From positions 43,013 through 107,012 of the forward strand of contig JAQUPS010000002.1 of assembly GCA_028716485.1 (NCBI GenBank): DNA of 64,000 bases. The letters are read 5' to 3'. The notes below the pieces were generated by a model. That model had not been told where the DNA came from. It ran no database searches and saw nothing but the letters and a program-made list of their open reading frames with translations. Both the position numbers and the translations under genes were made by a program. Shown one piece after another: positions 30,298 to 58,256 of the stretch (within the stretch, counting starts at the first letter, position 1; every line of letters starts with the position of its first letter). The DNA comes from Patescibacteria group bacterium (GTDB lineage: Bacteria > Patescibacteriota > Patescibacteriia > Patescibacteriales > WJLG01).

Positions 30298-30347
30298 AAC
30301 CTCGAAAACACTGGGCCTTCGGGTCACTTTGCACGCTTTCGTAAGAG

Positions 30348-44124: not shown

Positions 44125-44380
44125 GGCAAATTATATATACCAGATTTAAGCTTGGCTCTAATAATTTTCGCTTAAAAAAGCCTAAACCGCTATAAATCAT
44201 CAACTAAAAATTTCTCCCCCTTTCAAGGAGATTGAATTGTCAAAGAACGGAAAGAACCAAGCTATAAAAAGTGCATTTTGAAAACATCTTAGCACTAAGA
44301 GGATTTTTGTTCAATAGGCAAGCTTTTCCCGATATAGTCAAGAAAATGGAGTCAAAAAACCATTGTATTTGCATTCTATT

Positions 44381-44410
44381 AAAATAACCTGACGCAAGTC
44401 AGGTTATTTT
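44381..44410. terminator. bidirectional terminator-like hairpin (junction B1)
   Basis: aaaataacctgac-gcaa-gtcaggttatttt, an 11-13 bp stem with a GNRA loop. Confidence 0.55.
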
Positions 44411-44473
44411 AGTTCTCTCCTTCGCGGCCTACTGGCGGACTGCGTCCGCTGTAGCCCGATTCGGCGAGCGAAG

Positions 44474-44532
44474 GCGGGGAGTGAGCGATTTGAACCACTC
44501 GGGTTTGCGCGATAAAAAGTTGTCACTCCTTC
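44474..44532. repeat. junction repeat R-b, copy 1 (59 bp, tRNA-3'-end-like)
   Basis: gcggggagtgagcgatttgaaccactcgggtttgcgcgataaaaagttgtcactccttc matches 48381-48439 at 57 of 59 positions. The minus strand reads GGTTCAAATCGCTCACTCCCCGCC, which looks like a T-loop plus acceptor strand. Confidence 0.9.
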
Positions 44533-44640
44533 CATTGAATTTGGCTAACAATTGTTAAGTTTTCTAGACATCCCAAGCAATATTATTTTTATTCAATGTT
44601 AATGATTAAACAATTCATTACAAATCTCTCTGTGCTTACT

Positions 44641-44682
44641 AATAAATAAAAAGCCCTCACATAGTTGTTACTAAATGAGGGC
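44641..44682 (-). terminator. rho-independent terminator after the precursor-peptide gene
   Basis: Minus strand: GCCCTCA-N16-TGAGGGC followed by TTTTTATTTATT. Confidence 0.7.
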
Positions 44683-44705
44683 CACGCTAGAAGCTAAAGC
44701 CGTGT

Positions 44706-44858
44706 CTAGTCACACGTGCAGCAGATAGTGAGCGCGGAAATCGTCACTTTTTGATATTCAGTCAAATCAGCGTCAGCTTCTGATGCTGATTTGAAGAATT
44801 GCAACGATTCTTTCGTGGCGCAAACCATCTTGGTGTTTTTAACCAATGTGGCTACCAT
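44706..44858 (-). CDS. candidate RiPP precursor peptide (50 aa, Cys-rich C-terminus)
   Basis: AGGAGG lies 5 nt upstream of the ATG at 44856-44858, 13 nt after the rSAM stop. The peptide is MVATLVKNTKMVCATKESLQFFKSASEADADLTEYQKVTISALTICCTCD. The track ORF 44706..44909 is an upstream extension that overlaps the rSAM gene. Confidence 0.6.
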   Translation of the reverse strand: MVATLVKNTKMVCATKESLQFFKSASEADADLTEYQKVTISALTICCTCD

Positions 44859-44871
44859 TCGCTCCTCCTTT

Positions 44872-46203
44872 CTATGTTGGAATTGTAACAAGAGCTTTCG
44901 CCTTGTCAAGCTTGTTTAAAAATAAATTAAACTTTTCTGAATTTAAGCCATAATCCTTAACAATTTGCCCGGGGTTAAAGGATTGCATAGAATAAAGATG
45001 CTGAAAAAATTCAAATTCCTGAAAATTAAGAATGGCGAATTTTTCCGCTCTAAGAATAAAAGTGTCCTCTGAATCCTTTCTCCATTTGATACTTTCTCTA
45101 ATGGCAAAAATTTTCCCGTCCAGCAAGTTCGCATTAGTCATAACCTTCATGAATAATGTATAATCTTTCTGAACATTCTTCTTGTATCGACTCCTCATTT
45201 TAATATTTTTCCCCATCGCCATTGCTTCAGTCTTACATCCGCCTTTACAGACATCCAAGATGGCGCATTTTAGGCAATCATCAGGAACAACTTTCAAAAA
45301 TGATTCTCGATCACTGCCGTCATACATTGCCATTTTTGACATAACTGTTTTCAAGGAGTCTTCAAAGACATTGGCAATAGGAAAACTCATCACTGGGCAA
45401 CACTTAAGATTACCATTCAAATCGACAGTCATACCATTAACAACCCCAATCGTGCACCCCCTGAACAAATCATGCTTGGCAAATTTTTCATTCATTCCTT
45501 CCAAAAAGCAAATTGGCAGAGGCCGAGAATTTCTAATATCAACTCCGAACTCTTCATGCACTTTAACCATTTGCTCAAATATAGTTTCAATGTCTGAAAT
45601 AGAAACTATATGAGCTTCTTGCTCTTTGTAGCGAGGACTAATCGGGGCCGCACAAAAACGCAGAATACCAAACCTTTCGACGAGCATTTTGGCCGTGTCA
45701 TAAACAAGATCAATATTGTTAACCGGATTTTTTACGACCACCATATTCGCTGAAGTTCTTATTCCTTCCCTGGCAAGATTTTCAAATCCGACAAGGGCTC
45801 TTTCATAAGAACCTTCCGTTCTAGTCATGGCCTCAAAAATATTTTTGTCAATACAAGGAAAAGAGGCGAAGACGCTGGCAACGCCAAGATCCTTTAATCT
45901 TCTGGCGTCTTCCCTGGTGATTAACGTCGCGTTCGTATTGATTCCGAAATCCATTTCCGTTTCTTTGACCGCTGAAATACCTTCATACAAAACTTCCTTG
46001 CGCAGAAACGGCTCCCCTCCGGTAAACGTAACGTCGAAGGTTCCCCAGCCATTAATAATCCCGACAAGTCGCCGAATCCTTTTTTTTGCCTCAATAATCG
46101 ATAACTCTTCCGCGTCAAGAGGATTGTAACAGTAGGGACAGTCATGATTGCAAAGCATCGTGCTTTCAATGCGAACCACTAACGGATTAATTATTTTGAC
46201 CAT
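44872..46203 (-). CDS. radical SAM / SPASM-domain peptide-modifying enzyme with a C-terminal RRE (PqqD-like) region
   Basis: CNHDCPYC (CX3CX2C) and SPASM cysteines (KCCPV ... DDCLKCAILDVCKGGCKTEA). The C-terminal about 110 aa (ILNFQEFEFFQHL...GQIVKDYGLNSEKFNLFLNKL) resembles a peptide-recognition winged helix. Confidence 0.88.
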   Translation of the reverse strand: MVKIINPLVVRIESTMLCNHDCPYCYNPLDAEELSIIEAKKRIRRLVGIINGWGTFDVTFTGGEPFLRKEVLYEGISAVKETEMDFGINTNATLITREDARRLKDLGVASVFASFPCIDKNIFEAMTRTEGSYERALVGFENLAREGIRTSANMVVVKNPVNNIDLVYDTAKMLVERFGILRFCAAPISPRYKEQEAHIVSISDIETIFEQMVKVHEEFGVDIRNSRPLPICFLEGMNEKFAKHDLFRGCTIGVVNGMTVDLNGNLKCCPVMSFPIANVFEDSLKTVMSKMAMYDGSDRESFLKVVPDDCLKCAILDVCKGGCKTEAMAMGKNIKMRSRYKKNVQKDYTLFMKVMTNANLLDGKIFAIRESIKWRKDSEDTFILRAEKFAILNFQEFEFFQHLYSMQSFNPGQIVKDYGLNSEKFNLFLNKLDKAKALVTIPT

Positions 46204-46206
46204 GAT

Positions 46207-46827
46207 TCACTCTCCTTCTTTAACAATGTTATTGGATTTACTCCCCATTTCAACTTCCTGAGCAACATCTGCCTTCGTTTCTTTTTCAAGGAGTTGAATG
46301 TGTTCAAGAATCTTCTTAGCCCTCTCTCCCGCGTTTTCCAAATATTCTATGCGCTGGATTTTAAAACCAAGTTCGCGAATAACATCTTCTGTTATTTTGT
46401 GATAACGCAAAGACTCCTCAAAACTAAAATGTTTTCTTGGCCAACCGAGTCGATGTTTTTTTAAAGGAATAGGGTCGACTAAAAAAACTGTCGGACAAAT
46501 ATTAACATTCTTTGCCAAATCATAATACCTACCAGGAACGCTTAGACCAAGAAATTTTCGCAAAATAATCGGAGCAAAAATAACTCTATCAAAAAAACCA
46601 AGCTTCACGTCTGATTGCAGAGCACTCTTAAGTTGATCTTCCTTTAGGGAAAGAAATAAATTCGTAAAATCTTCCGCCTCAACCCTTGGAGAATACGCTT
46701 CCCCTTTTGCTCGATAAATATCTGGTACAACACTCTTATAGGCCTGAAAACCCATTTTACCAATCTCCCGGAGAATACTAGTTTTTCCGGCAGCCCACGC
46801 GCCCTCCAAGCTGTATATTTTTAGCAT
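46207..46827 (-). CDS. P-loop NTPase/kinase-like protein
   Basis: Walker A at the N-terminus, LEGAWAAGKTS. Size and layout match small nucleotide/nucleoside kinases (AAA_28/dNK-like). Confidence 0.6.
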   Translation of the reverse strand: MLKIYSLEGAWAAGKTSILREIGKMGFQAYKSVVPDIYRAKGEAYSPRVEAEDFTNLFLSLKEDQLKSALQSDVKLGFFDRVIFAPIILRKFLGLSVPGRYYDLAKNVNICPTVFLVDPIPLKKHRLGWPRKHFSFEESLRYHKITEDVIRELGFKIQRIEYLENAGERAKKILEHIQLLEKETKADVAQEVEMGSKSNNIVKEGE

Positions 46828-46850
46828 TATAGACCTCTTTCTGGTTTAGT

Positions 46851-47477
46851 TTACAATGGTTTTTTTGCAATCATGGAAACCATTCCGTGCTTATGCAACT
46901 TTTCATCTCCATGCTTATGTATTTTTGACATATATTCCGAATACTCAAGAATTTTCCAATCACTAAAAAAATTCCGCATCTCCCCTTTCTTGAAGAGATA
47001 ATATTCACAATAAGATCCGTCCGGCGATGGATAAGGACATTTCTCGAGAGGATTATCTACTGTAAATGATGAAATCGCAACAAGCCCGCCCGAGGTAACA
47101 TTTTCTTTTATCGCAGCAATAACCTTTTCAATATCTTCTATACTGAAAAGCTGTAAAACACCTAAACAAATAACAGCATCGTAATTATGCTGAAATTTAA
47201 AACGCCTCGCATCCCCTTCGCTAACTTTTATTTTAAGTCCGTGCTCACTGGCGATTGAGATCGTCTTTTTTAAGGCGGAAGATGAAATATCCACTCCCTC
47301 CACGGAAAAACCCGATGAAGCCAAAAAAATTGCATCTCTTCCTTCGCCCATACCCAAATCCAACACCGACCCGTGCTTTATGTAACGTAAGAGTCGAGGA
47401 ATGATTTTGTTTGGTGAAGATCCCCAAAATGAACCAAAACCGGAATACAGTTTTTCGAACATTTTATAATTTTTCAT
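46851..47477 (-). CDS. class I SAM-dependent methyltransferase (TehB-like size)
   Basis: Motif I VLDLGMGEGRDAIFLA, with GVDIS as post-I. Confidence 0.85.
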   Translation of the reverse strand: MKNYKMFEKLYSGFGSFWGSSPNKIIPRLLRYIKHGSVLDLGMGEGRDAIFLASSGFSVEGVDISSSALKKTISIASEHGLKIKVSEGDARRFKFQHNYDAVICLGVLQLFSIEDIEKVIAAIKENVTSGGLVAISSFTVDNPLEKCPYPSPDGSYCEYYLFKKGEMRNFFSDWKILEYSEYMSKIHKHGDEKLHKHGMVSMIAKKPL

Positions 47478-47532
47478 TTTTTCTCCTCAATTGTTAAAGT
47501 GCTAACCGTTTATATAAATCATTACTGGATAT

Positions 47533-48087
47533 TTACATTAACTTTTTAAGTGCTTCCAAAAGTAAATTAATACTGCTCAACTTATCCGCAACCACCTCTC
47601 TCGCTTCTTTTAAAGTTAATTTATCATTACAATCTCTGTCCATTTTTTTTATCACCCAATCATATGCTTCCATAAAGTCTTTGCCATTAGATCCGCAATG
47701 AAAGAAAAAATAAGGCATAACGTCAAAATGAGCCATGGCATCAGCATTCGCGATTATCTCCGCCTCTATCGTTTTGGGCTTATTTTCACCTTTAACTTCA
47801 TGGGCCTCCACACAATGAACAATTTCTTCAATAATTTTATCTTCAAAAGAAAAATCTTTTAAAATTTTTCTTGCTTCTATTGCTCCCGTTGACGCATGAT
47901 CTTTTGGCCCAAATTTAAATTTTCCAATATCATGAAGAATTGCAGCAAGCTCAACAATTTCTAAATTGGCATTCATTTTTTTTGCTAAAAAAACAGCGTT
48001 ATTAATTACGGGCTGAAAATGAAATTTTCGCTCATATTCATTTGCTTCGTCGAAAACTATTTTTTTAATTTGCTCTATTTTTGTCAT
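47533..48087 (-). CDS. HD-domain metal-dependent phosphohydrolase
   Basis: LAAILHDIGK (H...HD) and a later VEAHE. The start is ambiguous: ATG at 48087 or TTG at 48144. Confidence 0.8.
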   Translation of the reverse strand: MTKIEQIKKIVFDEANEYERKFHFQPVINNAVFLAKKMNANLEIVELAAILHDIGKFKFGPKDHASTGAIEARKILKDFSFEDKIIEEIVHCVEAHEVKGENKPKTIEAEIIANADAMAHFDVMPYFFFHCGSNGKDFMEAYDWVIKKMDRDCNDKLTLKEAREVVADKLSSINLLLEALKKLM

Positions 48088-48157
48088 TTTATTTAAAAAA
48101 ATTAAGCGGAAAATAACGCTTATTACAAGTTGTTTAAACCCCAATTTTAATGATTAA

Positions 48158-48186
48158 AGTTTACTATATAATTAAAGAACTGTCAA
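48158..48186 (-). promoter_or_regulatory. candidate promoter of the HD-to-peptide operon
   Basis: Minus strand: TTGACA, 17 nt, then TAAACT. Confidence 0.45.
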
Positions 48187-48292
48187 CTGCCAAAACGTAC
48201 CCATAAAATATCTTTTTTCAACACGATCCCCTTCAAAAAAGAAATGGGATTAGAACTAATATTTTTCATATTTTATAGCCTTTTTGACTTAA

Positions 48293-48332
48293 ACAGAAAA
48301 TCCTAGCACAAGCCAGGATTTTCTGTTTTTTT
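48293..48332 (+). terminator. terminator-like hairpin (junction B2)
   Basis: acagaaaatcctagc-acaa-gccaggattttctgt followed by TTTTTT on the + strand. Confidence 0.55.
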
Positions 48333-48351
48333 GCGAACATTCCCAAGGATC

Positions 48352-48439
48352 TCGGGTATGCACGATACTAAATTGTCTCTGCGGAGAGTGAGGGATTTGA
48401 ACCACTCGGGTTTGCGCGATAAAAAGTTGTCACTCCTTC
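48352..48439. repeat. composite junction repeat: R-a (48352-48384) plus R-b copy 2 (48381-48439)
   Basis: tcgggtatgcacgatactaaattgtctctgcgg matches 56894-56926 at 30 of 33 positions. The following 59 bp match 44474-44532. Confidence 0.9.
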
Positions 48440-48496
48440 TCTGATTTTACTTAAATTTATTATTTATCCGTAAAACACGCAAAAGCAAAGACTCCT

Positions 48497-49171
48497 TTAA
48501 ACGCCAAAAAAATATTTTGCCTGACCACTTTTCTTCAAAACAAAACCTATAAAAGGCGGCCTAATAGGAAATAATCCTCTAGTAAAACAATATATTGTTT
48601 CTAAAACTTTATTTTTGAAACAAAAACCGAAAGTTTCCAAGCATTCAGCGCCCGAGTCATTAATTATTTTTTTCCAAAATTTTACACTTAAAAATCTTTC
48701 ATCTCCGTGTATTCTTTGGCTATTAGAAAAATAATTAGTCGGCACAGAAATAATTACTGTTTCTGATTTGGATAGACAATACTGTATTGCTTCCACTATT
48801 CTTTCGTTGGAAAAATGCTCGAGTACGCCATTACTAAAAACTAAATCTTGAAAACCAATTTCGTCTGGCCAGTTAAATAAATCACCAACCCTTATATCAA
48901 CTTTATTGTTGGAAAATCCTACAACTTCTTTAGCGATCCTAATCATATTAACATCTGAGTCAATCCCGGAAACTGAATACCCCAGTGACCCTAAAAAAGC
49001 CAGAGAGGCGCCGGATCCGCAACCGATTTCTAATATTCTCCCTGATTTGCTGGCATGTTTGCATATAGCCTTTATCAGCCTCTTCTTATAACTAATCCTG
49101 CTAAAAACAAAACTCTCGACTGAACCAGCCTTTGCAATTTCTTCACCATAGACATACGACCATTTACTCAT
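48497..49171 (-). CDS. class I SAM-dependent methyltransferase
   Basis: Motif I ILEIGCGSGAS, with GIDSD as post-I. Confidence 0.85.
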   Translation of the reverse strand: MSKWSYVYGEEIAKAGSVESFVFSRISYKKRLIKAICKHASKSGRILEIGCGSGASLAFLGSLGYSVSGIDSDVNMIRIAKEVVGFSNNKVDIRVGDLFNWPDEIGFQDLVFSNGVLEHFSNERIVEAIQYCLSKSETVIISVPTNYFSNSQRIHGDERFLSVKFWKKIINDSGAECLETFGFCFKNKVLETIYCFTRGLFPIRPPFIGFVLKKSGQAKYFFGV

Positions 49172-49175
49172 AAAC

Positions 49176-49820
49176 TTACTTGTTAAAAAAAATTTTACTA
49201 GTCAGATTAATGATACTCTTGGATGACATTTTTTTACCACCCTCATTCTTCAGTCGCACTATCTTCTGCGCCAATTTATTACAACCGCTATTATTCGATT
49301 TAACCACGCAGCCATTAACTATCTCTTTTTGCCATAATGAATTAAATTTTACAACTGCAGAAAAATATTTCTTTTCAATAAACATTTTCGGGGTGCCTCG
49401 TAAAAATGCACTCTGGCCAGCGGAGAATCTTTTTTGGGCAATCTTTCTGTCACAGGAAACAAAAACATAAAAATCAGGAATTACAGTCTTCTTTTGCCTT
49501 AAAAGACTCTTTAGCGACTGTAAATGTTTTTCCCTCAAATCGATGCCGGAAAAAAAATATAAGGCATAAATATGCGCGGAAAGCGAAACAAAGCTTCTGT
49601 CAAGCATAACAATCCCCTTGCCCACTGCCTTCTGACGCAGATTGTCCACTTGCAAATAGCGTAAGTGCTCGTTGAACTCCGGAGAATATTTTTTTTCTCT
49701 CCTTATCTGGTCGACAAAAAATGTATGCTCGGCTATGCGTCGGCAGCCAATCTTTTCTGCCAGACAATTAACCAAGGTTGTTTTACCGGCAAAAACATTG
49801 CCATCGAATGCAACAATCAT
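49176..49820 (-). CDS. thymidylate-kinase/deoxynucleoside-kinase-like P-loop kinase
   Basis: IVAFDGNVFAGKTTL (P-loop) and a MLDRSFVS segment resembling the DRY/DRS motif of dNMP kinases. Confidence 0.65.
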   Translation of the reverse strand: MIVAFDGNVFAGKTTLVNCLAEKIGCRRIAEHTFFVDQIRREKKYSPEFNEHLRYLQVDNLRQKAVGKGIVMLDRSFVSLSAHIYALYFFSGIDLREKHLQSLKSLLRQKKTVIPDFYVFVSCDRKIAQKRFSAGQSAFLRGTPKMFIEKKYFSAVVKFNSLWQKEIVNGCVVKSNNSGCNKLAQKIVRLKNEGGKKMSSKSIINLTSKIFFNK

Positions 49821-50686: not shown

Positions 50687-51714
50687 TATTTTCTGAAAGT
50701 TATTATTGATTTAATATTCTTGCCAGACCAAGCATCTTTATAAGCTTGCTGATAGTTATCCATACTATAAACGCTGCTTGAGTCTATAAACGTTTCTGCT
50801 TTTAGCCGTCCAGATAAGACGCCTTCTATCACTTCTTCATGAACCGAACCCTCATCATAGTCCAAGCCATCAAAAAAACATATACCACTTCTTACACCAG
50901 GAGTAAAAAAAGCTTGATCTTTTTCTTTGTTTAAGCCATAAAGGCCAACTCTCGATCCAGCTTTCAGTGTTGTCACTAACTTGTTTAACATCCGATAATC
51001 CCCGCAAGCATCTATCACCCCTCTTACACCGAAAACAACCAAAGACTTAAGAATATTGTTCCAATCTTTTTCTTTATAAGAAATAAAGGCTTCGGCTCCG
51101 CAAGACAAAAATTTATCCCTCCGACCAGGATTACCGATAATAACCGTCCTTATCTTTAGATTATGAAGGTGGCATACAAACGACAATGCAACCGCTCCTG
51201 AACTAATAATTACTACATTATCTCCGGCAACAAAATTTAATCTTTTTAAAAAAGCTAAAGTTTCGCGCCAAGTAATAATCATTGTACTGGCAATCGGATC
51301 AAAATTTTTCGGCAAAACGCGATTGGCTGTAAATTTTTTCCATAAATCTTCTTTGCAGCCGTCTTCTTTCATAGCGCGCCAATCAACCGCTGTCCCGAAT
51401 TCCGCCATTCCACCCCAGACCAAATCAATTCCGCAACCTTCTGGCAGGTGATTATTAATCCTTGAAATCAAATCACCTGGTTTAAAATACTTAACCTTGC
51501 TTCCACGAGCCACAACAAGACCGACGGCTTCATGGCCGATGATGGCAGGGAGTTTAACTTTGAAACGATTGTGATTGCAAAAAATCTCATGATCGGTCCC
51601 GCTGCAAATCGCCGAAGCCTCAATCGAACAAAGAACCTCATATTCCCCCAAAATTGGGTCAGGAACATCTTTCAATTCCAACTTTTTAGGTAATTTAAGA
51701 ACAATTGCCTTCAT
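50686..51714 (-). CDS. zinc-type medium-chain alcohol dehydrogenase/reductase
   Basis: CSGTDHE and GHEAVGLVV zinc-ligand motifs, plus a Rossmann segment VVIISSGAVALS. Confidence 0.85.
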   Translation of the reverse strand: MKAIVLKLPKKLELKDVPDPILGEYEVLCSIEASAICSGTDHEIFCNHNRFKVKLPAIIGHEAVGLVVARGSKVKYFKPGDLISRINNHLPEGCGIDLVWGGMAEFGTAVDWRAMKEDGCKEDLWKKFTANRVLPKNFDPIASTMIITWRETLAFLKRLNFVAGDNVVIISSGAVALSFVCHLHNLKIRTVIIGNPGRRDKFLSCGAEAFISYKEKDWNNILKSLVVFGVRGVIDACGDYRMLNKLVTTLKAGSRVGLYGLNKEKDQAFFTPGVRSGICFFDGLDYDEGSVHEEVIEGVLSGRLKAETFIDSSSVYSMDNYQQAYKDAWSGKNIKSIITFRK

Positions 51715-51724
51715 AATACTATGG

Positions 51725-53374
51725 TTAGTTTATCCTATCAAGACCGGTATAGATACAATCAATGATATCAGCTCCTCCGCTCAATCCAATCTTATTTACA
51801 ATCTCGGCATGCTTAACCTTGATCGCCAAATGATATTTTTTAAATTCAGAAAAAAAATCAATTTTCCGATAGCCAAAACTGTCAATTTTTAGATGGCCAG
51901 CAAGAATCAGGTCGATGTAGCCGAGCAAAAAATCAAGCAAACTGTCCATAGCCTTATCCGCCGTCTTCTCTAAAATTGAAAAGTCTTTATCAACTTCTAA
52001 AAATATTTTATTATTATCTTGCTTGAGCAAGCTCTTCAGCAGAAATGCCGTGGTGCAAAAATATTCAAACTCATAAACCTCGTCTTTTATCTCTTCAAAA
52101 ATCGACTTAATTCCTTTTATGAATCTAGCCGTCTTGCGATCTTTATATCTATAACCGTAAGTTATACCGTTAAAATCGGCTTTGGCCTCAAGTAAACCGT
52201 CTTCGACCAGCTTTTTATGAAAACCTGATCCGGGAATCACTCTGACTGGCTCGAGAATAGTCCCCAATCTAAAGAGCTTATCAATCTTTCTCAGGTGCTT
52301 CAAATTTTCAGCAACTGCCGAAAGCCTTGAATATGGTTCAACAACTATATAGCCAATGTGAATATTTATATCGAATTTATCGAATTTGGTTTTTGCCTTT
52401 TCATAAGCATGAAGTGCAATTTTTTTATTCAAAACATCTTGGCTTTGCGAAGAAATATTCTCTATCCCTAAAAAAACTCTAACCAACCCGGCCTGATGCA
52501 AAGCCGACAAAATATCTTCCGGCATTTCTGGCTTAACTTTCAAATAGACATAAAATTTTACAGACAATTTCCTCTTTTTAATTTCTTTGCAAAAATCAAT
52601 AATCCGAGCATTGTCTGCCTTGCCGCGCCAAAAACAGCTATCATTAAAAATAAATAGTTTTTTTCCCAACGAACCGTTAAGCTTCTCCATTTCGTCAACC
52701 ACCAGCCTTGGTGATCGATAATCAATCTTTTCCTGACCGGAAATTTTTGAAACCAAGGGAATGTGGCAAAAACTGCATCCGCCATTGCAACCCCGCGAAG
52801 CCTCAATATTTATAAAGCTTCCTTTCTCTATTTTTTCTACATCTCGAGCTGGGAAAGGCAGGCCATTTAATCCGAGCCTTGAATTCCGAAAAGTAAAATC
52901 AGAAAAGAAATCTCCTCCTGATTTGCGCCAAACTCCGCCTGAACAATTTTGCGGCGTAAGTTTTTTACCAGCAGATATCAATCTTGCCAAATCCAAAGAA
53001 GTTTCTTCAGCATCACCAATCAATATTCCATCCAACCATGGCAGCTTTTTCATTATTGAATGATAATTCAAGCAAGCAAAAGGCCCGCAAAAAAAGACAC
53101 TATCAACCTCCCGTTGCTTCTTTAACTCGGCAAGTAACGGCAATAGCAGGGAATAATCCTTAAAATTTGGTTTAGCGATAACGATCTTTCTTCCCTCTCC
53201 TTGCAATATCTTTTCCGCGTTATGCAATCCTTGTCTTTCCATTAGACATAAATCGCAAACAAACCCGTTTTGACGCAGAAAAGCGGCAACAGACCCCATG
53301 GTCAAGGAGGCAGCCGATTGAGAAAAAAGGGTGCGGTAAAAAACTAATTTGAAAGTAATTTTTTTATTTTTCAT
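51725..53374 (-). CDS. cobalamin-binding-domain radical SAM enzyme (class B type)
   Basis: 549 aa. An N-terminal flavodoxin-like B12-binding-type region is followed by EASRGCNGGCSFC (CX3CX2C). Confidence 0.8.
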   Translation of the reverse strand: MKNKKITFKLVFYRTLFSQSAASLTMGSVAAFLRQNGFVCDLCLMERQGLHNAEKILQGEGRKIVIAKPNFKDYSLLLPLLAELKKQREVDSVFFCGPFACLNYHSIMKKLPWLDGILIGDAEETSLDLARLISAGKKLTPQNCSGGVWRKSGGDFFSDFTFRNSRLGLNGLPFPARDVEKIEKGSFINIEASRGCNGGCSFCHIPLVSKISGQEKIDYRSPRLVVDEMEKLNGSLGKKLFIFNDSCFWRGKADNARIIDFCKEIKKRKLSVKFYVYLKVKPEMPEDILSALHQAGLVRVFLGIENISSQSQDVLNKKIALHAYEKAKTKFDKFDINIHIGYIVVEPYSRLSAVAENLKHLRKIDKLFRLGTILEPVRVIPGSGFHKKLVEDGLLEAKADFNGITYGYRYKDRKTARFIKGIKSIFEEIKDEVYEFEYFCTTAFLLKSLLKQDNNKIFLEVDKDFSILEKTADKAMDSLLDFLLGYIDLILAGHLKIDSFGYRKIDFFSEFKKYHLAIKVKHAEIVNKIGLSGGADIIDCIYTGLDRIN

Positions 53375-53444
53375 GCCTTTACTTTAATAATACTCTTGTT
53401 ATAATATGCTATATAACGATTATAAATTATAATAATAACTCTAT

Positions 53445-53870
53445 ATGGAAAAAGGTTTAATTGTCCACGCCGCTATCCTCAATAATGATGAATTGCTAAT
53501 CCTTAAAAGAGCCCCTGGAACTTATTTGGAAAAACTGTGGGATATTCCAGGAGGCACACTTGAAGATGGCGAGGAACCAGAAGAAGGCACTATCCGCGAA
53601 GTCATGGAAGAAACCGGCTTAAATCTAAGCAAGGCGGCAATTTTTTATTGCCACTCTAACGTGGACCAAAAAAAGAACAAACAATTCGTGACCCTCATCT
53701 TCTTGGGCAAAACCGACCAAAAAGAAATAAAAATAAATCCTTCAGAACACAACGAATATGCATGGGTTAAGTTAGCTGAAATAAAAAAATATGAAACAGT
53801 TGATTATCTTCTTTCCTGTATTGAATATTTAGCAGAAAAAAAGAGCGGACTCAGCTCCTTAATATCTTAG
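53445..53870 (+). CDS. NUDIX hydrolase (copy 1)
   Basis: NUDIX box GGTLEDGEEPEEGTIREVMEETGL. The 3' end overlaps the convergent GT2 gene by 20 nt. Confidence 0.9.
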   Translation: MEKGLIVHAAILNNDELLILKRAPGTYLEKLWDIPGGTLEDGEEPEEGTIREVMEETGLNLSKAAIFYCHSNVDQKKNKQFVTLIFLGKTDQKEIKINPSEHNEYAWVKLAEIKKYETVDYLLSCIEYLAEKKSGLSSLIS

Positions 53871-55305
53871 TTTTATATTTATCAACTTCTCCGTTCGTAA
53901 TTTTTGCTTTAGCGGCCAAAAAAATTGAATAGTACGCCGACGCGCCATGCATAACATAGGCAAAAAAAGATCCGAACAATAAAAAAATTAAAGCCTCACC
54001 GGCTTTAATTTTTTTATCAGGAAATAACAAATATACCAGAAACCCTGGCAAAACCAAAAAGGTAAAATAGGCTAACAGAAAAGGCTCAAAATTTAAGGTT
54101 GCCAAGGAATATAAAAAAATAAATAACAAGCAAGTCGGCCCTATGACCCAAAAAATAGCATGAAAAAAAAGTTTGCTGGATAGAAAAAACAATCTTGCCC
54201 CATCAACCTCCGGAATCATGCCTTTCAATTTTTTAAAGTATAAAGGAGCCTGAAACGGCCCAAAAAACCAAGTAGCCTTCTGAAAAAATAAACTCTTAAC
54301 CGTATTGGGGGCGTCCGCAACATCAAAAAAAGGTATAGGAAAAATTGTTTTTTTCGCATAACTAAGTCCTAGGCCAAAAATCGCATCTTCATTGTGCGTA
54401 TCCTCGAAAAAATGATATTTTTCATAAATATCTCTGGTAAAAAACAAACCGTGGCCGATACAATAATTTAAGGGGTGCAAAAACCTCTCGCCGATAATCT
54501 TTTTTTTAAGAAAAATAAATTGCTTCAAACTGTTGAACATCTCAAAACCGACGCTCCATCTATTTTGCCAAATACACGATGAAATAAGAATCGCCCTGCT
54601 AATAAAATCACTCTTTAAAATCGATTCGGTATTTCCAAAATATTTTCCGTACTGCTGAAAAACCAAGCTGGAACCATTGCTTCTTTGATTCAACCAAAAA
54701 AATGTTTCCGAGTCAGGACGAGAATCAGCATTGTAAATTCCTAAAAGTTCGTTATGCCAAAATCCTTTATTAATCAATAATTTCAAACAATAATTAAGCT
54801 GATGCGCCATCTTCCCCGAAATAAAAGGATAATTAATCACCATCACCCCTTCCCGGTGGCAATCCTTCAAAACATCGATGGTATTTTTATACTCACTAAT
54901 CACTTCTAGCGCTTTGTTCTTTAAAATTTCAATATCTTTAAAACCGCTCAGGTCTGCACCGAAATCAGATTTAATAAGAGAAACGATTTCATTCCTTACT
55001 CCCTTAGACGCTAAAACCTTAACAGCCTCTTTGTTCTTTTTACAAATCTCATCTTCCTTTGCCGTAGTGACAATAATTAATTTTGATCCAGGAAACGGCT
55101 TAATCAAATTTAAAAAATAATCTATAGTGGCAAAAATAATATCTTTTTCTTCTATGACTGGAATGACCACAAAAAAAGGACGATTAGCTTTTCTCTCGCC
55201 ACCATAAAAAGCTCTCTCGCTTCTTTTCATCCAAAAAAAAGAAACTAATATTTTAACCAACCAATAAACCGATAACAAAATAAATAAATATAAAATTATT
55301 TTCAT
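53851..55305 (-). CDS. membrane-embedded family 2 glycosyltransferase, processive (synthase-like) type
   Basis: N-terminal TM span, FFVVIPVIEE, a YNADSRP (DxD-like) segment, the Q-x-x-RW motif CIWQNRW, and 4-5 C-terminal TM spans. Confidence 0.72.
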   Translation of the reverse strand: MKIILYLFILLSVYWLVKILVSFFWMKRSERAFYGGERKANRPFFVVIPVIEEKDIIFATIDYFLNLIKPFPGSKLIIVTTAKEDEICKKNKEAVKVLASKGVRNEIVSLIKSDFGADLSGFKDIEILKNKALEVISEYKNTIDVLKDCHREGVMVINYPFISGKMAHQLNYCLKLLINKGFWHNELLGIYNADSRPDSETFFWLNQRSNGSSLVFQQYGKYFGNTESILKSDFISRAILISSCIWQNRWSVGFEMFNSLKQFIFLKKKIIGERFLHPLNYCIGHGLFFTRDIYEKYHFFEDTHNEDAIFGLGLSYAKKTIFPIPFFDVADAPNTVKSLFFQKATWFFGPFQAPLYFKKLKGMIPEVDGARLFFLSSKLFFHAIFWVIGPTCLLFIFLYSLATLNFEPFLLAYFTFLVLPGFLVYLLFPDKKIKAGEALIFLLFGSFFAYVMHGASAYYSIFLAAKAKITNGEVDKYKTKILRS

Positions 55306-55340
55306 GTTTATAAAAAAGGCATTGAATAAAAATCAATGCC

Positions 55341-55970
55341 TTATTCAGAGTAACCAACTTTGGCAGCAAGTTCTTCTTGCTTAAAAAACATCAACGATTC
55401 CCTGATTGCATCTTCTTTACTGTCTGCACAATGAATCAGGTTGTAAACAGGGTGCTTCTTCTTTTCGTCTTCATACTTGAACCGGACGTGATTTCTCAAA
55501 TTCAGAAGCTCTCTGAAAATATCCGAGCCAGAAACCAACAAGCAGAGCGACGGTCCAGAAGTCAAATAGTTTAAAAAATGAGCCTCCCATATTCTTTCAA
55601 AGAAGTAAGGATAAAGGCGGAAAGCCATTTGCTGATCAAGCACTATTGTCTTTTCTGCAAGAATCTTAAAAGAACTGGCGACAATAGATCTTATTTCTTT
55701 GACCAATCCGCGCTCCCCGCAATCGGGCTTCAGGATACAGAGGCTAAAATCTTTGAGCAAAAAAAGCTCATCCGGAAACGACATGGAAATCCCCCTCCAA
55801 TACCGTTTCTCGTTTTGAACCATAATGTATTCACCATCGCTGTCGGTTTCAATAAACCCTTGAATGGTTGAACCAACATAATACCAGCGATCCTTACCGC
55901 CCAAAAAAACCTTACGTACTAGACGCCCTTTTTCATCGACAAGATATTTGCATTCGCTTTCCATATTCAC
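55341..55970 (-). CDS. nucleoside-diphosphate-kinase-like protein with an about 70-aa N-terminal extension
   Basis: LCILKPD ... LTSGPSLCLLV ... NLIHCADSKEDAIRESLMFF parallels the NDK strings IKPD ... MTSGPVVAMV ... NIIHGSDSVESAEKEIALWF, including the catalytic His. Confidence 0.6.
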   Translation of the reverse strand: MNMESECKYLVDEKGRLVRKVFLGGKDRWYYVGSTIQGFIETDSDGEYIMVQNEKRYWRGISMSFPDELFLLKDFSLCILKPDCGERGLVKEIRSIVASSFKILAEKTIVLDQQMAFRLYPYFFERIWEAHFLNYLTSGPSLCLLVSGSDIFRELLNLRNHVRFKYEDEKKKHPVYNLIHCADSKEDAIRESLMFFKQEELAAKVGYSE

Positions 55971-56190
55971 CCCCCTCCTTGATTTTTTGGTTATTATTAA
56001 TGGGAGACTCTTTTAAGGAGCTAATTTTGTTTCTATTAATTTACGTATCTTATACATACCACGTATTATCTATTTATGTCAAGTCTACAACAAAAACAAT
56101 AACATCCGTAAAAAACTTGATTATATCGCGCTATTTGTTTAATATGGTTAAGAGAAGCTGAACATTAACATTTTACAAAAGAGGTTTAAC

Positions 56191-56610
56191 ATGGAAAAAG
56201 GAATAATAGTCCATTCCTTAATCATAAATCAAGGAAAAATTCTAATTCTAAAAAGGGCAAAACAAGAAGATCCTCTTAAAAATCACTGGGATTTCCCCGG
56301 TGGTACGTTAGAGGATGGTGAACAACCAATTTTGGGCGCAAAAAGAGAAATACGGGAAGAAACCGGCCTGGTAGTAAAAGATTTACAACTGTTTTATTGC
56401 GTTTCCAATATTGATGCTAAAAAGAAAAAACAGTTCATTACCCTAATATTCTTAGGGAAAACAAAGGCTAACCCAAAAAAAATTAAGTTAAGCAAGCGCG
56501 AACACGGAGAATTCAAATGGATTGAATTAGATGAATTCCAAAATTATCAGGTTGTTGATTTCGTGAAAGGATGCGTGTCCTATCTAAAAAGTCACGATTA
56601 TGCAATTTAA
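56191..56610 (+). CDS. NUDIX hydrolase (copy 2, paralog of 53445..53870)
   Basis: NUDIX box GGTLEDGEQPILGAKREIREETGL. It is colinear with copy 1 from MEKG(I/L)IVH to the C-terminus. Confidence 0.9.
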   Translation: MEKGIIVHSLIINQGKILILKRAKQEDPLKNHWDFPGGTLEDGEQPILGAKREIREETGLVVKDLQLFYCVSNIDAKKKKQFITLIFLGKTKANPKKIKLSKREHGEFKWIELDEFQNYQVVDFVKGCVSYLKSHDYAI

Positions 56611-56632
56611 TAAAGTTGGATATTATTGCACA

Positions 56633-56662
56633 AAGGCCGTCACCGAACAGACGGCTTTTTTA
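56633..56662 (+). terminator. rho-independent terminator after NUDIX copy 2
   Basis: aaggccgtc-N8-gacggctt followed by TTTTT. Confidence 0.7.
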
Positions 56663-56733
56663 TTAGCGTTAACTAACCATTGCGGCTACAAAAAAATGGC
56701 TATTTTTCTACAATTACTAAAAATGTTGATTTT

Positions 56734-56755
56734 TGAAGCACACGGGATTCGAACC
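56734..56755 (-). other. isolated tRNA 3'-end-like fragment
   Basis: The minus strand reads GGTTCGAATCCCGTGTGCTTCA: T-loop, 3' T-stem, 7-nt acceptor strand and discriminator. No matching 5' half is present. Confidence 0.45.
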
Positions 56756-56776
56756 AAAATTACACATATTTTTCAC

Positions 56777-56839
56777 ATCTTTGACTAAATCTTTGACTAA
56801 ATCTTTGACTAAATCTTTGACTAAATCTTTGACTAAATC
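56777..56839. repeat. tandem 12-bp repeat, five full copies plus a partial one (iteron-like)
   Basis: (atctttgactaa) x5 then atc. TTGACTAA recurs at 56872-56879, and TTGACTA at 57569-57575. Confidence 0.95.
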
Positions 56840-56866
56840 AAAAAAATCTGACATAAATCAGATTTT
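56834..56866 (-). terminator. rho-independent terminator oriented on the minus strand (junction B3)
   Basis: Minus strand: AAAATCTGA-N6-TCAGATTTT followed by TTTTTGATTT. Confidence 0.65.
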
Positions 56867-56893
56867 CTCTATTGACTAACAATAGCCAACCAA

Positions 56894-56935
56894 TCGGGTC
56901 TGCACGATACTAAATTGTCTTGGCGGGACACTCGG
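56894..56935. repeat. junction repeat R-a copy 2 followed by a CACTCGGGT motif
   Basis: tcgggtctgcacgatactaaattgtcttggcgg, then gacactcgggt. CACTCGGGT also occurs in both R-b copies and at 57004-57012. Confidence 0.9.
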
Positions 56936-57107
56936 GTTAAGTGCCCCAGTTATACAATCATTATAAGGGTTTTATGCGCCTTAGTCCAGAGGCAAAATTG
57001 AAGCACTCGGGTCGGGGGTCTAAAAGCAAAATGAGACAAATGAGACACTATAAGGGGCTTTTTGGATTGTCTCATTTTGGGGCATAATGCAAATGGATAA
57101 AAGATAA

Positions 57108-57764: not shown

Positions 57765-58232
57765 ATGTTGAATAAAAACAATCTTAACATCGTTTATGTT
57801 TCTATAAGTTCATTGCGCCCATCAGAGTATAATCCGCGTAAATGGGGCAAGGAAGCAAAAGAACAATTGAAACAAAGTATTAGCCGATTCGGGCTGGTTG
57901 ATCCGCTTCTCGTCAATTCCGCCAAAGGCCGGGAGGGCGTGGTCATCGGCGGCCATTTCCGTCTATTCATAGCCAAAGAATTGGGATACGTCAAAGTACC
58001 TGTTGTTTATATTTGTATTGACGACCTAGAAAAAGAAAAAGAACTGAATATTAGGCTTAATAAAAACTTGGGGGAATTTGATTGGGATATGCTGGCTGAT
58101 TTCGGCAATTCCCTGCTAACTGATATCGGATTTTCCAGCGAAGAATTGGATAATATCTTTGGTATTGATGAAAGCCCGGAAATGTTTAATTTGGACAAAG
58201 AATTGAAAAAATTAAACATCAAAAAAATCTAA
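57765..58232 (+). CDS. ParB-like nuclease/partition N-terminal-domain protein
   Basis: VSISSLRPSEYNPRKW ... VIGGHFR, the ParB/Srx-fold box. It ends at a TAA that is in frame with the next ORF. Confidence 0.8.
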   Translation: MLNKNNLNIVYVSISSLRPSEYNPRKWGKEAKEQLKQSISRFGLVDPLLVNSAKGREGVVIGGHFRLFIAKELGYVKVPVVYICIDDLEKEKELNIRLNKNLGEFDWDMLADFGNSLLTDIGFSSEELDNIFGIDESPEMFNLDKELKKLNIKKI

Positions 58233-58256
58233 ATCCAAAAAGGAGATGTTTGGCAA

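Follow-up and report, generated by a model that had tools for sequence, protein, structure and literature searches.

Tandem accretion of accessory DNA at tDNA sites is established (PMC4383910, PMC7192596). Only tyrosine integrases were known to target tDNAs according to PMC4383910, which also treats an exact duplication of the tRNA 3′ end alone as the signature of tDNA-targeting integration. The stretch of 64,000 nucleotides analysed here (the window), from a Patescibacteria group bacterium, holds between 44.4 and 57 kb what is, on balance, probably an array of two cargo cassettes in tandem, neither with a recombinase, at an attachment module that stems from the 3′ end of a tRNA-Ser gene. Its junctions (B1, B2 and B3) are leftover tRNA-Ser 3′ ends plus a 25-base motif, at a hot spot that stacks accessory blocks. 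We refer to the tRNA fragment, the T-loop and acceptor 3′ strand of tRNA-Ser, as t3, and to the copies of the motif as M and M′. M lies after tRNA-Ser genes in many ultra-small CPR/Patescibacteria.

As a genomic-island array the locus is of a familiar kind, though some of its details are unusual. As in tRNA/tmRNA tandem islands (Islander/TIGER; PMC4383910, PMC7192596), displaced 3′ tDNA fragments sit in tRNA orientation at the borders of accessory blocks, breakpoints fall in the region of the T-loop and T-acceptor junction, units are arranged in tandem and composition is anomalous; relatives headed by an intact tRNA-Ser show the full signature. Unlike such islands, neither cassette carries an integrase, the array in the window has no intact tRNA head, and the repeat overruns the tRNA on both sides, where M′ and M form direct copies of 25 nt, each at a constant distance of 4 nt. 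A large serine recombinase is the sole recombinase to recur near these modules, which separates them from tyrosine-integrase islands.

SCCmec composites share other features with this locus. Their Ccr large serine recombinases target the 3′ end of rlmH/orfX, and SCCmec cassettes lacking a recombinase are mobilised in trans. Here too, cassettes accumulate one behind another at a conserved gene's 3′ end, each is bounded by a site-containing direct repeat, many lack their own recombinase, and the recombinase of relatives is nearest to CcrB among named families, although at 136 bits against a family cut-off of 900. Here, however, a tRNA-Ser end takes the place of rlmH as the target, and the repeats are compound as well as longer. 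Integron cassette arrays and their attC sites likewise hold co-oriented cargo between recurring structured sites and may lack an integrase, but the units here span 4 to 8 or more genes with their own terminators and promoter-like boxes, their junctions are direct repeats with tRNA-derived sequence and not attC palindromes, and IntI was not found. Finally, tRNA-linked or tRNA-like processed RNAs (3′ external transcribed spacer sRNAs) resemble the modules in having a conserved trailer after a tRNA or a GCCA-ending acceptor-stem mimic, a terminator after that trailer and a position on the coding strand; the modules differ in having no covariation-supported structure, in their sporadic distribution and in being tied to t3 duplications and a recombinase.

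Repeat units at the three junctions

An earlier note on this DNA had described paired repeats (R-a and R-b), a 9-mer and hairpins at the junctions. All are confirmed, far beyond chance by expectations and shuffles, and all read along the minus strand. R-b (59 nt) has copies at 44474-44532 and 48381-48439 (57/59, 97% identity), and R-a (33 nt) at 48352-48384 and 56894-56926 (30/33, 91%). The note had overlooked that R-a matches the second half of R-b at 73% identity; one 25-nt unit, which reads GACAAYTTnnTATCGYGCAnACCCGA on the minus strand, thus underlies all junctions and occurs four times in the window against 0.00 expected. There are exactly four copies of the 9-mer CACTCGGGT (ACCCGAGTG on the minus strand), one at each junction and one beyond (44496, 48403, 56929 and 57004), where 0.07 were expected and 0 of 100 shuffles reached four, and two copies of the T-loop-like block GAGTGGTTCAAATCSCTCACTC against 0.00 expected.

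On the minus strand, R-b consists of GGAGTG, the 25-nt M′, GTGG and t3, and R-a of a 4-nt spacer and M. The part of R-b suspected of being tRNA-like, t3 (GGTTCAAATCCCTCACTCTCCGCA), does come from the 3′ end of a tRNA-Ser: an intact tRNA-Ser(GGA) at locus L017 of a related MAG terminates in the identical sequence. The offset is fixed in many CPR genomes: at every locus examined, M begins exactly 4 nt past the ...CCGC of t3 and M′ stops exactly 4 nt ahead of TTCRAATC. Just as the note could complete no cloverleaf, neither ARAGORN nor Rfam found a tRNA at any of the three junctions, which also matched no Rfam family even at relaxed thresholds. The hairpins that it placed beside each junction (44381-44410, 48293-48332 and 56834-56866) are there, and by nature they are terminators, with stems of 8, 15 and 13 bp that lead into U runs on the minus strand. 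The features are listed below by coordinates, strand, description and basis.

44376-44414, minus: terminator T2, AAAATAACCTGACTTGCGTCAGGTTATTTT, at the distal array end; 8-bp hairpin, then U run
44417-44473, minus: G+C-rich hairpin insert of ~57 nt (CCTTCGC...GCGAAGG) between B1 t3 and T2; predicted stem
44474-44494, minus: t3 of B1, TTCAAATCGCTCACTCCCCGC; pattern match
44499-44531, minus: M′ of B1, ACAACTTTTTATCGCGCAAACCCGA, with prefix AAGGAGTG; nhmmer 38.6 bits, E=4e-11
44706-48144, minus: cassette 1; Pfam and gene calls on the identical Logan contig L030
48243-48292, minus: post-terminator block of B2, AAGTCAAAAAGGCTATAAAAT...; conserved in L017, L002, L010 and L022
48293-48332, minus: terminator hairpin of B2, 15 bp; predicted fold
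48352-48380, minus: M of B2, ACAATTTAGTATCGTGCATACCCGA, plus AGAG spacer (R-a); repeat, pattern and nhmmer matches
48381-48401, minus: t3 of B2, TTCAAATCCCTCACTCTCCGC; identical to the tRNA-Ser(GGA) 3′ end of L017
48406-48467, minus: M′ of B2 with GGAGTG prefix and conserved upstream sequence TTTAAGTAAAAT; pattern match
48497-56610, minus: cassette 2; Pfam, NCBIfam and PADLOC
56740-56866, minus: 3′ part of the B3 unit, with hairpin, 12-bp repeats and T-loop relic; repeat, fold and T-loop scans
56894-56920, minus: M of B3, ACAATTTAGTATCGTGCAGACCCGA, with AG just before; nhmmer 43.5 bits
56921-57055, minus: B3 head module in four pieces; same module 5′ of M in relatives
57765-60551, plus: remnant of a phage-like element; Pfam and NCBIfam

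At B1, T2 is 92% identical to the terminator directly 3′ of an intact tRNA-Ser(GCT) in L018, and G+C-rich mini-inserts comparable to the one beside it follow tRNA-Ser(GCT) in L018 and L079, each closing with a duplicated tRNA-Ser 3′ end. The t3 of B1 comprises the T-loop, T-stem 3′ strand, acceptor 3′ strand, G73 and C of tRNA-Ser, the same layout as the intact tRNA-Ser 3′ ends in L001-L022; its TCACTCC could pair with GGAGTGA over 7 bp. G+C content falls here from ~45% to ~37%.

The B2 block at 48243-48467 is 81% identical over 226 nt to positions 541-764 of L017, whose 25-nt displaced duplicate is also identical to the t3 of B2. A −10-like TAAAAT upstream of the B2 M′ (48444-48449) is conserved between the window and L017. 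The T-loop scan placed a relic, GTTCTAATC, at 48248-48256 within the post-terminator block, and in the homologous hairpins of relatives pairing is kept despite changes (ATCTGA/TCAGAT versus ACCTGA/TCAGGT).

Cassette contents and the element beside B3

Cassette 1 (36-39% G+C) encodes an HD phosphohydrolase, a TehB-like methyltransferase, an AAA_28 kinase-like protein, a radical SAM/SPASM-like enzyme and a 50-aa ORF; its PADLOC matches, pVip and mad2, are both weak. Cassette 2 (32-39% G+C) encodes a methyltransferase, a dNK-like kinase, an rSAM-SPASM protein, a Zn-ADH, a B12-binding rSAM protein, a 484-aa membrane protein and an NDK-like protein, with two NUDIX genes on the plus strand. As the earlier note had remarked, no integrase is visible: the ORFs scanned from 42 to 64 kb contain no integrase domain, and the recombinase of relatives has no tblastn match within the window. 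No intact tRNA that could anchor the array was found in the 64-kb window. The host tRNA-Ser(TGA) at 36.5 kb is without M, so M is not required by tRNA-Ser in this genome.

The array in the window is not headed by a tRNA. The B3 head combines a sigma-70-like promoter (TGGACT-17-TATAAT, 56988-56960) with an 8-bp micro-helix (GGGGCACT/AGTGTCCC, loop TAACCCG) and the GCCA in which it closes, and has a degenerate M′/T-loop relic upstream (ACCCGAGTGCTTCAATTT, 57012-56995). The same type of module precedes M in L084 (80% over 154 nt), L075, L049, L006 and L054. The 3′ part of the B3 unit includes, besides the terminator hairpin, five copies of the 12-bp repeat AGTCAAAGATTT at 56777-56839 and a post-terminator T-loop relic, GTTCGAATC, at 56746-56754. 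Next to the head lies the phage-like remnant, with genes for ParB_N, an N6_N4 DNA methylase, an HTH small-terminase-like protein and a large terminase truncated to 361 aa (478 aa in L014). The ParB/methylase/terminase module of L014 and L081 shares one element with the large serine recombinase, beside tRNA-Ser and M. A decayed element of this ParB/methylase/terminase kind has its end at B3.

Motif M and a serine recombinase in related loci

A census of 79 public CPR loci and the window comprised 93 copies of M. Forty lie 2-5 nt past an intact tRNA, which is tRNA-Ser in 38 cases (five anticodons), tRNA-Trp in one and tRNA-Asp in one; 40 follow non-tRNA sequence that still closes in ...CCGC(CA)nn (pseudo-tRNA ends) and eight are M′. 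The earlier proposal of a private site, reconstituted from the left of B1 and the right of B3, does not survive this census, as no fewer than 79 loci, spread over many CPR lineages, share R-a/M. The strict pattern occurs at 22 loci, in ~14 of 185,579 species genomes; that it is rare yet spans several CPR lineages fits horizontal spread.

Relatives contain insertions flanked by exact t3 duplicates, together with the same compound junction. L017 runs from tRNA-Ser(GGA) through a 2.4-kb island (peptide/rSAM/methyltransferase), an exact 25-nt t3 duplicate, M and a 4-kb cassette to a homologue of B2; L018 has two mini-inserts, each closed by a 17-nt t3 duplicate, and then M; and contig JBAZHE010000006 (L022 and L012) runs tRNA-Ser(GCT)-M, cassette, M′-t3-M, recombinase-carrying segment. 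Content downstream of M is highly variable. Four loci at the tRNA-Ser(GCT) site have common upstream genes and four different downstream contents, and the genes downstream of M fall into 121 clusters and 156 Pfam families, among which radical SAM, B12-binding and methyltransferase domains recur. Many M units lie between tRNA-Ser and housekeeping-type genes (AlaRS, AspRS) without an obvious island; M is thus not simply the 'left end of an island'.

M is linked in fixed orientation to the CcrB-like large serine recombinase. Of the 79 loci, 20 encode it, all of them on the opposite strand to M, and in eight its distance from M is 86-89 nt. The classic tyrosine integrase has no counterpart here: none recurs near M. 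The crossover site of the serine recombinase was not located, because its own terminator, which adjoins the stop codon, is retained there even where M is kilobases away.

Origin of the array

The cassettes in the window would have arrived through site-specific recombination at t3, with M and M′ as candidate protein-binding arms of that site and a recombinase acting in trans, possibly the serine recombinase, as for ccr-less SCCmec cassettes. Each unit, on the minus strand, would begin with the 4-nt spacer, the 25-nt M, a hairpin, a terminator and a post-terminator block with a T-loop relic, and continue through cargo genes to GGAGTG, M′, GTGG and t3. B2 (M′-t3-M) would then be the border of two units, matching the attP expected of a circular unit; B1 (M′-t3, G+C-rich hairpin, T2) would be the distal end beside the higher-G+C core genome; and B3 (promoter, micro-helix, GCCA, M) would be the proximal end, where the tRNA may have been replaced by the ParB-side end of the decayed element, whose version in relatives carries the large serine recombinase. 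The array may be a fossil or still mobilisable in trans. The model in the earlier note is partly supported: tandem site-specific insertion agrees with the tRNA-Ser origin of t3, the tDNA-insertion signature of L017, the B2 homologue, the G+C drop and the recombinase link in relatives, but its private site is lost, the array has no tRNA head, and the recombinase that recurs near such modules is not the classic tyrosine integrase. Serine-integrase sites have inverted-repeat symmetry; as read from the sequence, t3-spacer-M has none, and this counts against insertion at t3, as do the missing recombinase gene and anchoring tRNA, the island-free M units, the separate terminator of the serine recombinase, the lack of a recurrent tyrosine integrase and a conservation of M well above that expected of a neutral scar. 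Neither an excised circle nor an empty site came to light, and the 3,921-bp Logan contig matching cassette 1 is an expected assembly break, exactly the product of a k=31 break at a 46-nt exact repeat.

We consider it unlikely that the modules are functional RNA genes or 3′-UTR elements, operon-end punctuation of this lineage rather than recombination scars, although the earlier note had raised a repeated small RNA at operon ends as its alternative. A tRNA-Ser or acceptor-stem mimic (the M′-t3 pseudo-tRNA, or micro-helix plus GCCA) would then be an RNase P/Z-type processing handle, co-transcribed with a conserved structured trailer (M and hairpin) up to an intrinsic terminator. Every module does lie on the cassette coding strand with a terminator at its end; promoter-like boxes stand just 5′ of B2 (the TAAAAT kept in L017) and of B3; the 7-bp GGAGTGA/TCACTCC stem varies only C/T opposite G, preserving G-U pairs; and the island-free M units beside housekeeping genes and the micro-helix, GCCA and M of five loci also suit such RNAs. 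A hand-drawn class-A long hairpin, rich in G-U pairs that would be workable only on this strand, has 83% of cells paired against 23-47% with partners slid, but its covariation is weak (6 cells, equalled by 12/500 shuffles), and RNAalifold gave no consensus structure (−0.8 kcal/mol, zero compensatory pairs). The folding register differs from one unit class to another, whereas all keep the 25-nt primary sequence, which argues for recognition of sequence rather than structure. Further, the pseudo-tRNA T-stem is not kept in L010 or L017, Rfam family matches are zero, and M is found neither at the host tRNA-Ser nor in the vast majority of CPR genomes. Exact t3 duplications at inserts and the fixed-orientation recombinase link would also go unexplained.

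That same link, with one orientation relative to M in all 20 loci, weighs against regarding the modules as short dispersed repeats of 100-230 nt, a doubtful alternative in which the intervening cassettes came by repeat-promoted capture, duplication or exchange. Copying between tRNA-Ser flanks, by gene conversion or homologous recombination, or small non-autonomous mobile units would suffice without dedicated site-specific integration of each cassette. Genomes do hold several copies with 75-93% identity over 100-230 nt, L020 and L087 have cargo-free units (M, ~40 nt, GGAGTG, M′), degenerate M copies and T-loop relics are scattered about the junctions, cassettes in L037 and L059 are flanked by duplicated terminators, and the window has no recombinase. 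Breakpoint positions, however, are the same to the nucleotide each time (the edge of the T-loop, and 4 nt past CCGC), a precision typical of site-specific and not homologous recombination, and L017 and L018 duplicate exactly the tRNA 3′ end alone. Chance similarity, or an assembly chimera joining unrelated low-G+C DNA to the contig, is barely credible. The G+C shift at 44 kb is sharp and short-read assemblies break at the repeat, but shuffles never reproduced the repeats, the same compound junction recurs in independent assemblies from other studies, and cassette 1 was assembled identically in two independent runs.

Junction anatomy and the array model

The region is best read as a tandem array of islands or cassettes at a site derived from a tDNA, a structure of a known kind. 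Its unusual features are the CPR host, the compound junction in which a 25-nt motif, M, stands on both sides of a tRNA fragment, the replacement of the tRNA by acceptor-stem mimics, and the link to a recombinase of the large serine type, not to a tyrosine integrase. What the earlier note observed is confirmed, and its interpretation is partly supported. Repeat R-b recurs at 44474-44532 and 48381-48439 (59 nt, 97% identity) and repeat R-a at 48352-48384 and 56894-56926 (33 nt, 91% identity); the 9-mer CACTCGGGT occurs exactly four times in the window (44496, 48403, 56929 and 57004) against 0.07 expected, and folding returns the three junction hairpins at 44381-44410, 48293-48332 and 56834-56866, with stems of 8, 15 and 13 bp. 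The R-b copies differ at positions 5 and 13, and the R-a copies at three positions. Overlooked at first was the resemblance of R-a to the distal half of R-b (73% identity), so that all junctions are made of one 25-nt unit, which has four occurrences in the window against 0.00 expected.

The layout of the junctions is listed below; M' is the second copy of the motif and t3 the T-loop and acceptor 3' strand of a tRNA-Ser.

Layout of the three junctions, read along the minus strand
B2, 48467 down to 48243, minus strand: TTTAAGTAAAAT, GGAGTG, M' (ACAACTTTTTATCGCGCAAACCCGA), GTGG, t3 (TTCAAATCCCTCACTCTCCGC), AGAG, M (ACAATTTAGTATCGTGCATACCCGA)
B2, 3' rest, within 48467-48243, minus strand: after M, a small hairpin, a 15-bp terminator, AAGTCAAAAAGG... 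and a T-loop relic, GTTCTAATC
B1 (R-b at 44474-44532), minus strand: GGAGTG-M'-GTGG-t3, then a G+C-rich hairpin of ~57 nt, then a terminator
B3 (R-a at 56894-56926), 5' part, minus strand: promoter-like TGGACT-17-TATAAT, an 8-bp micro-helix (GGGGCACT/AGTGTCCC) ending GCCA, AG, M
B3, 3' rest, minus strand: after M, a hairpin and terminator, five tandem copies of AGTCAAAGATTT, and a T-loop relic, GTTCGAATC

Spacing is rigid, with M starting 4 nt past ...CCGC and M' ending 4 nt before TTCRAATC, and the t3 copies (44474-44494 and 48381-48401) are in tRNA orientation. The cassette genes are on the minus strand, the two NUDIX genes of cassette 2 being listed as plus. That no tRNA is present at the junctions also holds: ARAGORN and Rfam (RF00005) call neither a tRNA nor a known RNA family at any of them, only 38 nt lie between the acceptor strands, with no D or anticodon arm, and Rfam 15 families give nothing there except terminator-driven matches far under threshold (BSnc120, for instance, scores 26-30 bits where the cut-off is 114). 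Two other candidates were rejected. A small ORF across M'-t3, of 38 aa in B1, stops in frame after 21 codons in the B2 copy and meets an in-frame TAG in R-a; dif/pdif-like Xer sites and attC need a dyad symmetry that is missing. The five perfect 12-mer copies at 56777-56839, directly past the B3 terminator, are an iteron-like amplification ~0.9 kb from a ParB_N gene, and AGTCAAAGAGG stands as a single copy at the same post-terminator place in homologous units of six related loci (L002, L017, L022, L041, L060 and L062).

On the plan that we propose, each unit would read spacer-M-hairpin-terminator-post block-cargo-GGAGTG-M'-GTGG-t3, and the array would run from the head (B3) through unit 2 (8,542 bp), unit 1 (3,907 bp) and a tail of G+C-rich hairpin and terminator into the core genome. 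A circular unit would then carry M'-t3-M as its attP, and repeated site-specific insertion at a tRNA 3' end would yield such an array; a tRNA-Ser of matching type would have the acceptor GGAGAGx/...CTCTCCGCCA. Islands in tDNAs are bounded by the regenerated gene and a displaced fragment and form tandem arrays (PMC4383910); because every integration leaves a restored core at either end, further elements can join (PMC7192596). The tandem integration proposed in the earlier note stands in one part, B2 fitting as a unit-unit junction, and falls short in another, the window having neither a recombinase nor an anchoring tRNA. For recombinase-less cassettes, the closest precedent would be the ccr-less cassettes of SCCmec composites, which are moved in trans; the filamentous phage phiRSM has a small serine recombinase acting at a tRNA-Ser 3' end. 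Neither a circle nor an empty site was seen for the window cassettes. A 3,921-bp Logan contig was considered as cassette 1 in excised, circular form; it spans 44503-48423, made up of 3,861 unique bases and 30 more on either side, and its ends are the k=31 break expected at a 46-nt exact repeat, so it was dropped as evidence of a circle.

An insertion hot spot at the tRNA-Ser 3' end

A degenerate pattern for M, run on one genome per species, found 22 loci, and a scan of JGI metagenomes added 57. Nearly all of the 22 are in CPR/Patescibacteria MAGs (Parcubacteria, Zambryskii-, Nealson-, Buchanan- and Falkowbacteria), several coming from evidently mislabelled TPA bins. Forty of 93 M copies lie 2-5 nt past an intact tRNA called by ARAGORN, and the tRNA is Ser in 38 (anticodons TGA, GGA, CGA, GCT and ACT), Trp in one and Asp in one; in another 40 the sequence before M is not a tRNA yet retains the ...CCGC(CA)nn ending, eight are M' with GGAGTG before them and four are at contig edges. 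By this census R-a is, at the sequence level, a conserved trailer of tRNA-Ser 3' ends. The T-loop-like half of R-b, which had been likened to a tRNA end, proves to be a genuine tRNA-Ser 3' fragment: GGTTCAAATCCCTCACTCTCCGCA of B2 is identical to the 3' end of a tRNA-Ser(GGA) in the related locus L017. IMG/VR scans gave no match to the M pattern or the T-loop junction pattern, and a separate scan of JGI metagenomes for a strict M' pattern had none. M is also rare: the host's own tRNA-Ser lacks it, as do nearly all CPR genomes. In an IMG/VR contig (L023, 5160-5240), M after a tRNA-Ser(TGA) is split into ACAATTTTTTATCG and GACCCGAGT by a 30-nt hairpin insert, which suggests that M consists of two sub-motifs.

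L017 is the best analogue of the window array. Along the tRNA strand, its intact tRNA-Ser(GGA) and terminator are followed by a 2.4-kb island that encodes a small Cys-rich peptide, an rSAM/SPASM protein and a TehB-like methyltransferase. After the island, the 3' end of the tRNA is repeated as an exact 25-nt copy, and this copy precedes AGAG-M, a hairpin, a terminator and a post-terminator block. Then come a 4-kb cassette (glycosyltransferase, epimerase, carbamoyltransferase, CYTH) and TAAAAT-GGAGTG-M'-t3'-AGAG-M, and this terminal element is 81% identical to B2 over 226 nt. JBAZHE010000006 has tRNA-Ser(GCT)-M, a cassette of ~2.4 kb, M'-t3-M, and then a segment with AAA_21/HNH genes, a recombinase and HsdM. 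Four loci with common upstream synteny (a 700-aa gene, tRNA-Arg, a 190-aa gene, tRNA-Ser(GCT)) carry four different downstream contents. Genes within 4 kb downstream of M form 121 clusters with 156 Pfam families, among which radical SAM (5), B12-binding (3) and SAM methyltransferase (3) domains recur; 121 downstream ORFs are co-oriented with M and 45 opposite. Many M units lie between a tRNA-Ser and housekeeping-type genes, with no island.

In the loci L018 and L079, two G+C-rich mini-inserts follow a tRNA-Ser(GCT), each ending in a 17-nt duplicate of the tRNA end, and AGAG-M stands after the last; the terminator directly after the L018 tRNA is 92% identical to that of B1. Such mini-inserts (L018 100-520, also L079; window 44417-44473) are 57-190 nt long and G+C-rich within A+T-rich DNA. 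An inverted copy of the tRNA-Ser T-loop and acceptor (GGATGGGATTCGAA) at the start and a duplicated tRNA-Ser 3' end at the finish would let each fold as a long minihelix, and these miniature inserts seem to form a family of their own at that site.

At B1, G+C falls from 42-51% on the left to 32-39% in the cassettes; in relatives the mean drop is modest (+2.8 points, 13 of 22 loci) and in some it is large. With their foreign composition, both units fall within the 2-200 kb of Islander, and the t3 copies are the displaced 3' tDNA fragment, in the same orientation and at the other end, for which Islander looks. The intact tRNA of that scheme is present in the relatives L017, L018 and L022/L012. 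In the window, ARAGORN and Rfam find no tRNA or tmRNA at the array end, the only calls being a tRNA-Trp (30.3 kb) and a tRNA-Ser(TGA) (36.5 kb), the latter with a different acceptor stem, no M and a position on the distal side. A second low-G+C stretch (25750-30420; 0.32-0.36 against ~0.45 on either side) carries five co-oriented ORFs on the minus strand, ends at the tRNA-Trp (30347-30418, minus) and may be another tRNA-adjacent island; in the locus L040, M directly follows a tRNA-Trp.

A candidate recombinase and competing explanations

The large ORFs at 42-64 kb have no Phage_integrase, Resolvase or Recombinase domain in Pfam, in line with the earlier reading that no integrase is visible, and no IntI-type domain; nor does the relatives' recombinase have a tblastn match within the 64-kb window. 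In the related locus L014, a convergent 456-aa large serine recombinase (Resolvase, Recombinase and Zn_ribbon_recom) lies within 86 nt past tRNA-Ser(ACT), M and terminator, followed by a large terminase, a small-terminase-like HTH protein, an N6_N4 methylase and ParB. Window 57765-60551 is the same module, with methylases 83-87% identical and the window terminase truncated. Of the 79 loci, 20 carry homologues of this recombinase (65-100% identity), and in every case M is on the other strand: eight at 86-89 nt past M, ten at 0.8-4.4 kb downstream with intervening genes, and two as fragments upstream. No tyrosine integrase recurs among the genes within 4 kb downstream of M. The ParB/methylase end of these elements is just upstream of an M in the window, L061 and L052 and beyond the recombinase in L014 and L081, and the B3 head module (~150 nt: promoter, micro-helix, GCCA) also precedes M in five relatives (L084, L075, L049, L006 and L054); on these grounds B3 can be read as the ParB-side end of a decayed recombinase-bearing element that abuts the M of the next unit.

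The t3-spacer-M sequence has no dyad symmetry of the kind seen in serine-integrase sites. A search for the crossover site of the recombinase, by comparison of loci with and without the gene, of viral contigs (L023-L029) and of the recombinase 3' flanks, showed no half-site switch. The recombinase's own terminator, at its stop codon, travels with the gene even where M is kilobases away, and M does not always come along. The closest named relative of the enzyme is CcrB of SCCmec (136 bits, far under the cut-off). As in SCCmec, both cassettes are bounded by direct repeats, R-a and R-b, and in relatives the site abuts the tRNA-Ser 3' end; a ccr-type recombinase is absent from the 64-kb window, and the CcrB-like one of the relatives lies next to M in the 20 loci just described. 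Integrons carry promoterless single-ORF cassettes with palindromic attC, whereas here there are five and at least ten ORFs, terminators and direct repeats.

M is conserved far above expectation for a scar, and it may be a site for the recombinase or an accessory protein, or RNA. The idea that the junction modules work as RNA rather than being recombination scars finds some support, as they sit on the coding strand with promoter-like boxes and terminators, their GGAGTGA/TCACTCC stem changes only in G-U-compatible ways, and in class-A units, one class of M-bearing units, 83% of the cells of a long hairpin are paired, compared with 23-47% when slid controls are used. Yet RNAalifold finds no consensus fold over 23 class-A units, covariation in their hairpin is weak, the unit classes fold in different registers round an invariant primary sequence, the pseudo-tRNA T-stem is not kept, and the lack of M at the host's tRNA-Ser and in nearly all CPR genomes speaks against such a role as well. 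Exchange of dispersed repeats through homologous recombination is weakened as an explanation by breakpoints that are precise to the nucleotide.

It is also conceivable, though in our judgement improbable, that the locus belongs to an undescribed CPR integration system, in which a CcrB-like serine recombinase uses the extreme tRNA-Ser 3' end and the 25-nt motif and stacks recombinase-less cargo, the units of promoter, acceptor mimic and M being functional and not scars. M could there be a duplex site or a folded hairpin, or act through a co-transcribed tRNA-linked or micro-helix RNA. Targeting of tDNAs is not known from the large serine recombinase family.

Cargo, significance and neighbouring genes

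CPR bacteria have tiny genomes and few recognized mobile elements, and their acquisition of accessory genes is poorly known. The window locus and ~80 relatives mark a recurring hot spot at the tRNA-Ser 3' end at which variable cargo is stacked, including radical-SAM/kinase/methyltransferase sets, restriction-modification genes, glycosyl-modification genes and phage-like modules; a compound module, strikingly conserved, delimits each block. Should the linked large serine recombinase be responsible, this would be a tDNA-targeting serine integrase system with trans-mobilized cassettes. Such a system would be important for CPR evolution, and a recombinase of this kind, with a defined site of ~50 bp, could find use in genome engineering. 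A module that works as RNA would instead represent a new tRNA-linked RNA class. Under either reading, the 25-nt motif offers a practical way to locate island boundaries in fragmented CPR MAGs.

Cassette 1 encodes an HD protein, a TehB-like methyltransferase, an AAA_28 kinase-like protein, an rSAM/SPASM-like enzyme and a 50-aa ORF; cassette 2 encodes a methyltransferase, a dNK-like kinase, an rSAM-SPASM protein, a Zn-ADH, a B12-rSAM, a membrane protein, an NDK-like protein and two NUDIX proteins. PADLOC gives the cargo weak matches to kinase-associated viperins (pVip, 59 bits), VakA and mad2, and the cargo rSAM scores equally well or better against many unrelated rSAM families, so a role in nucleotide modification or defence is only hinted at. 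Homologues of the cassette-1 radical SAM (54% identity) occur in defence-island-like contexts without the M/t3 module; the cargo is thus not tied to the module. A pair of AAA_28 kinase-like protein and 440-aa radical SAM (L032 9402-12049, L033 8603-11250, L034 3392-6039) recurs with a 72-aa ORF and a NUDIX gene; its neighbours are a Shedu-like SduA_C gene and restriction-modification genes of type I/IIG. At L005 120-1460 (LCOP01000050), a homologue with 74% identity to the cassette-1 radical SAM lies directly upstream of, and divergent from, an M-bearing tRNA-Ser(TGA), with G+C at 50% upstream of the tRNA and 38% downstream.

The left part of the window carries FtsZ/FtsA and type-IV-pilus genes, which fits its origin in a Patescibacteria MAG, and an exact look-up of the left-flank protein returned no record. 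The last higher-G+C gene before the array (42022-43983) encodes a 653-aa secreted-looking protein with a weak Por_Secre_tail match (24.9 bits, under the cut-off); such a T9SS C-terminal sorting domain would be unexpected in a CPR bacterium. Finally, a very A+T-rich region immediately upstream of a 1,398-aa gene contains a 300-nt direct repeat (6285-6584 and 7048-7347), the two copies being 93% identical and 763 nt apart.
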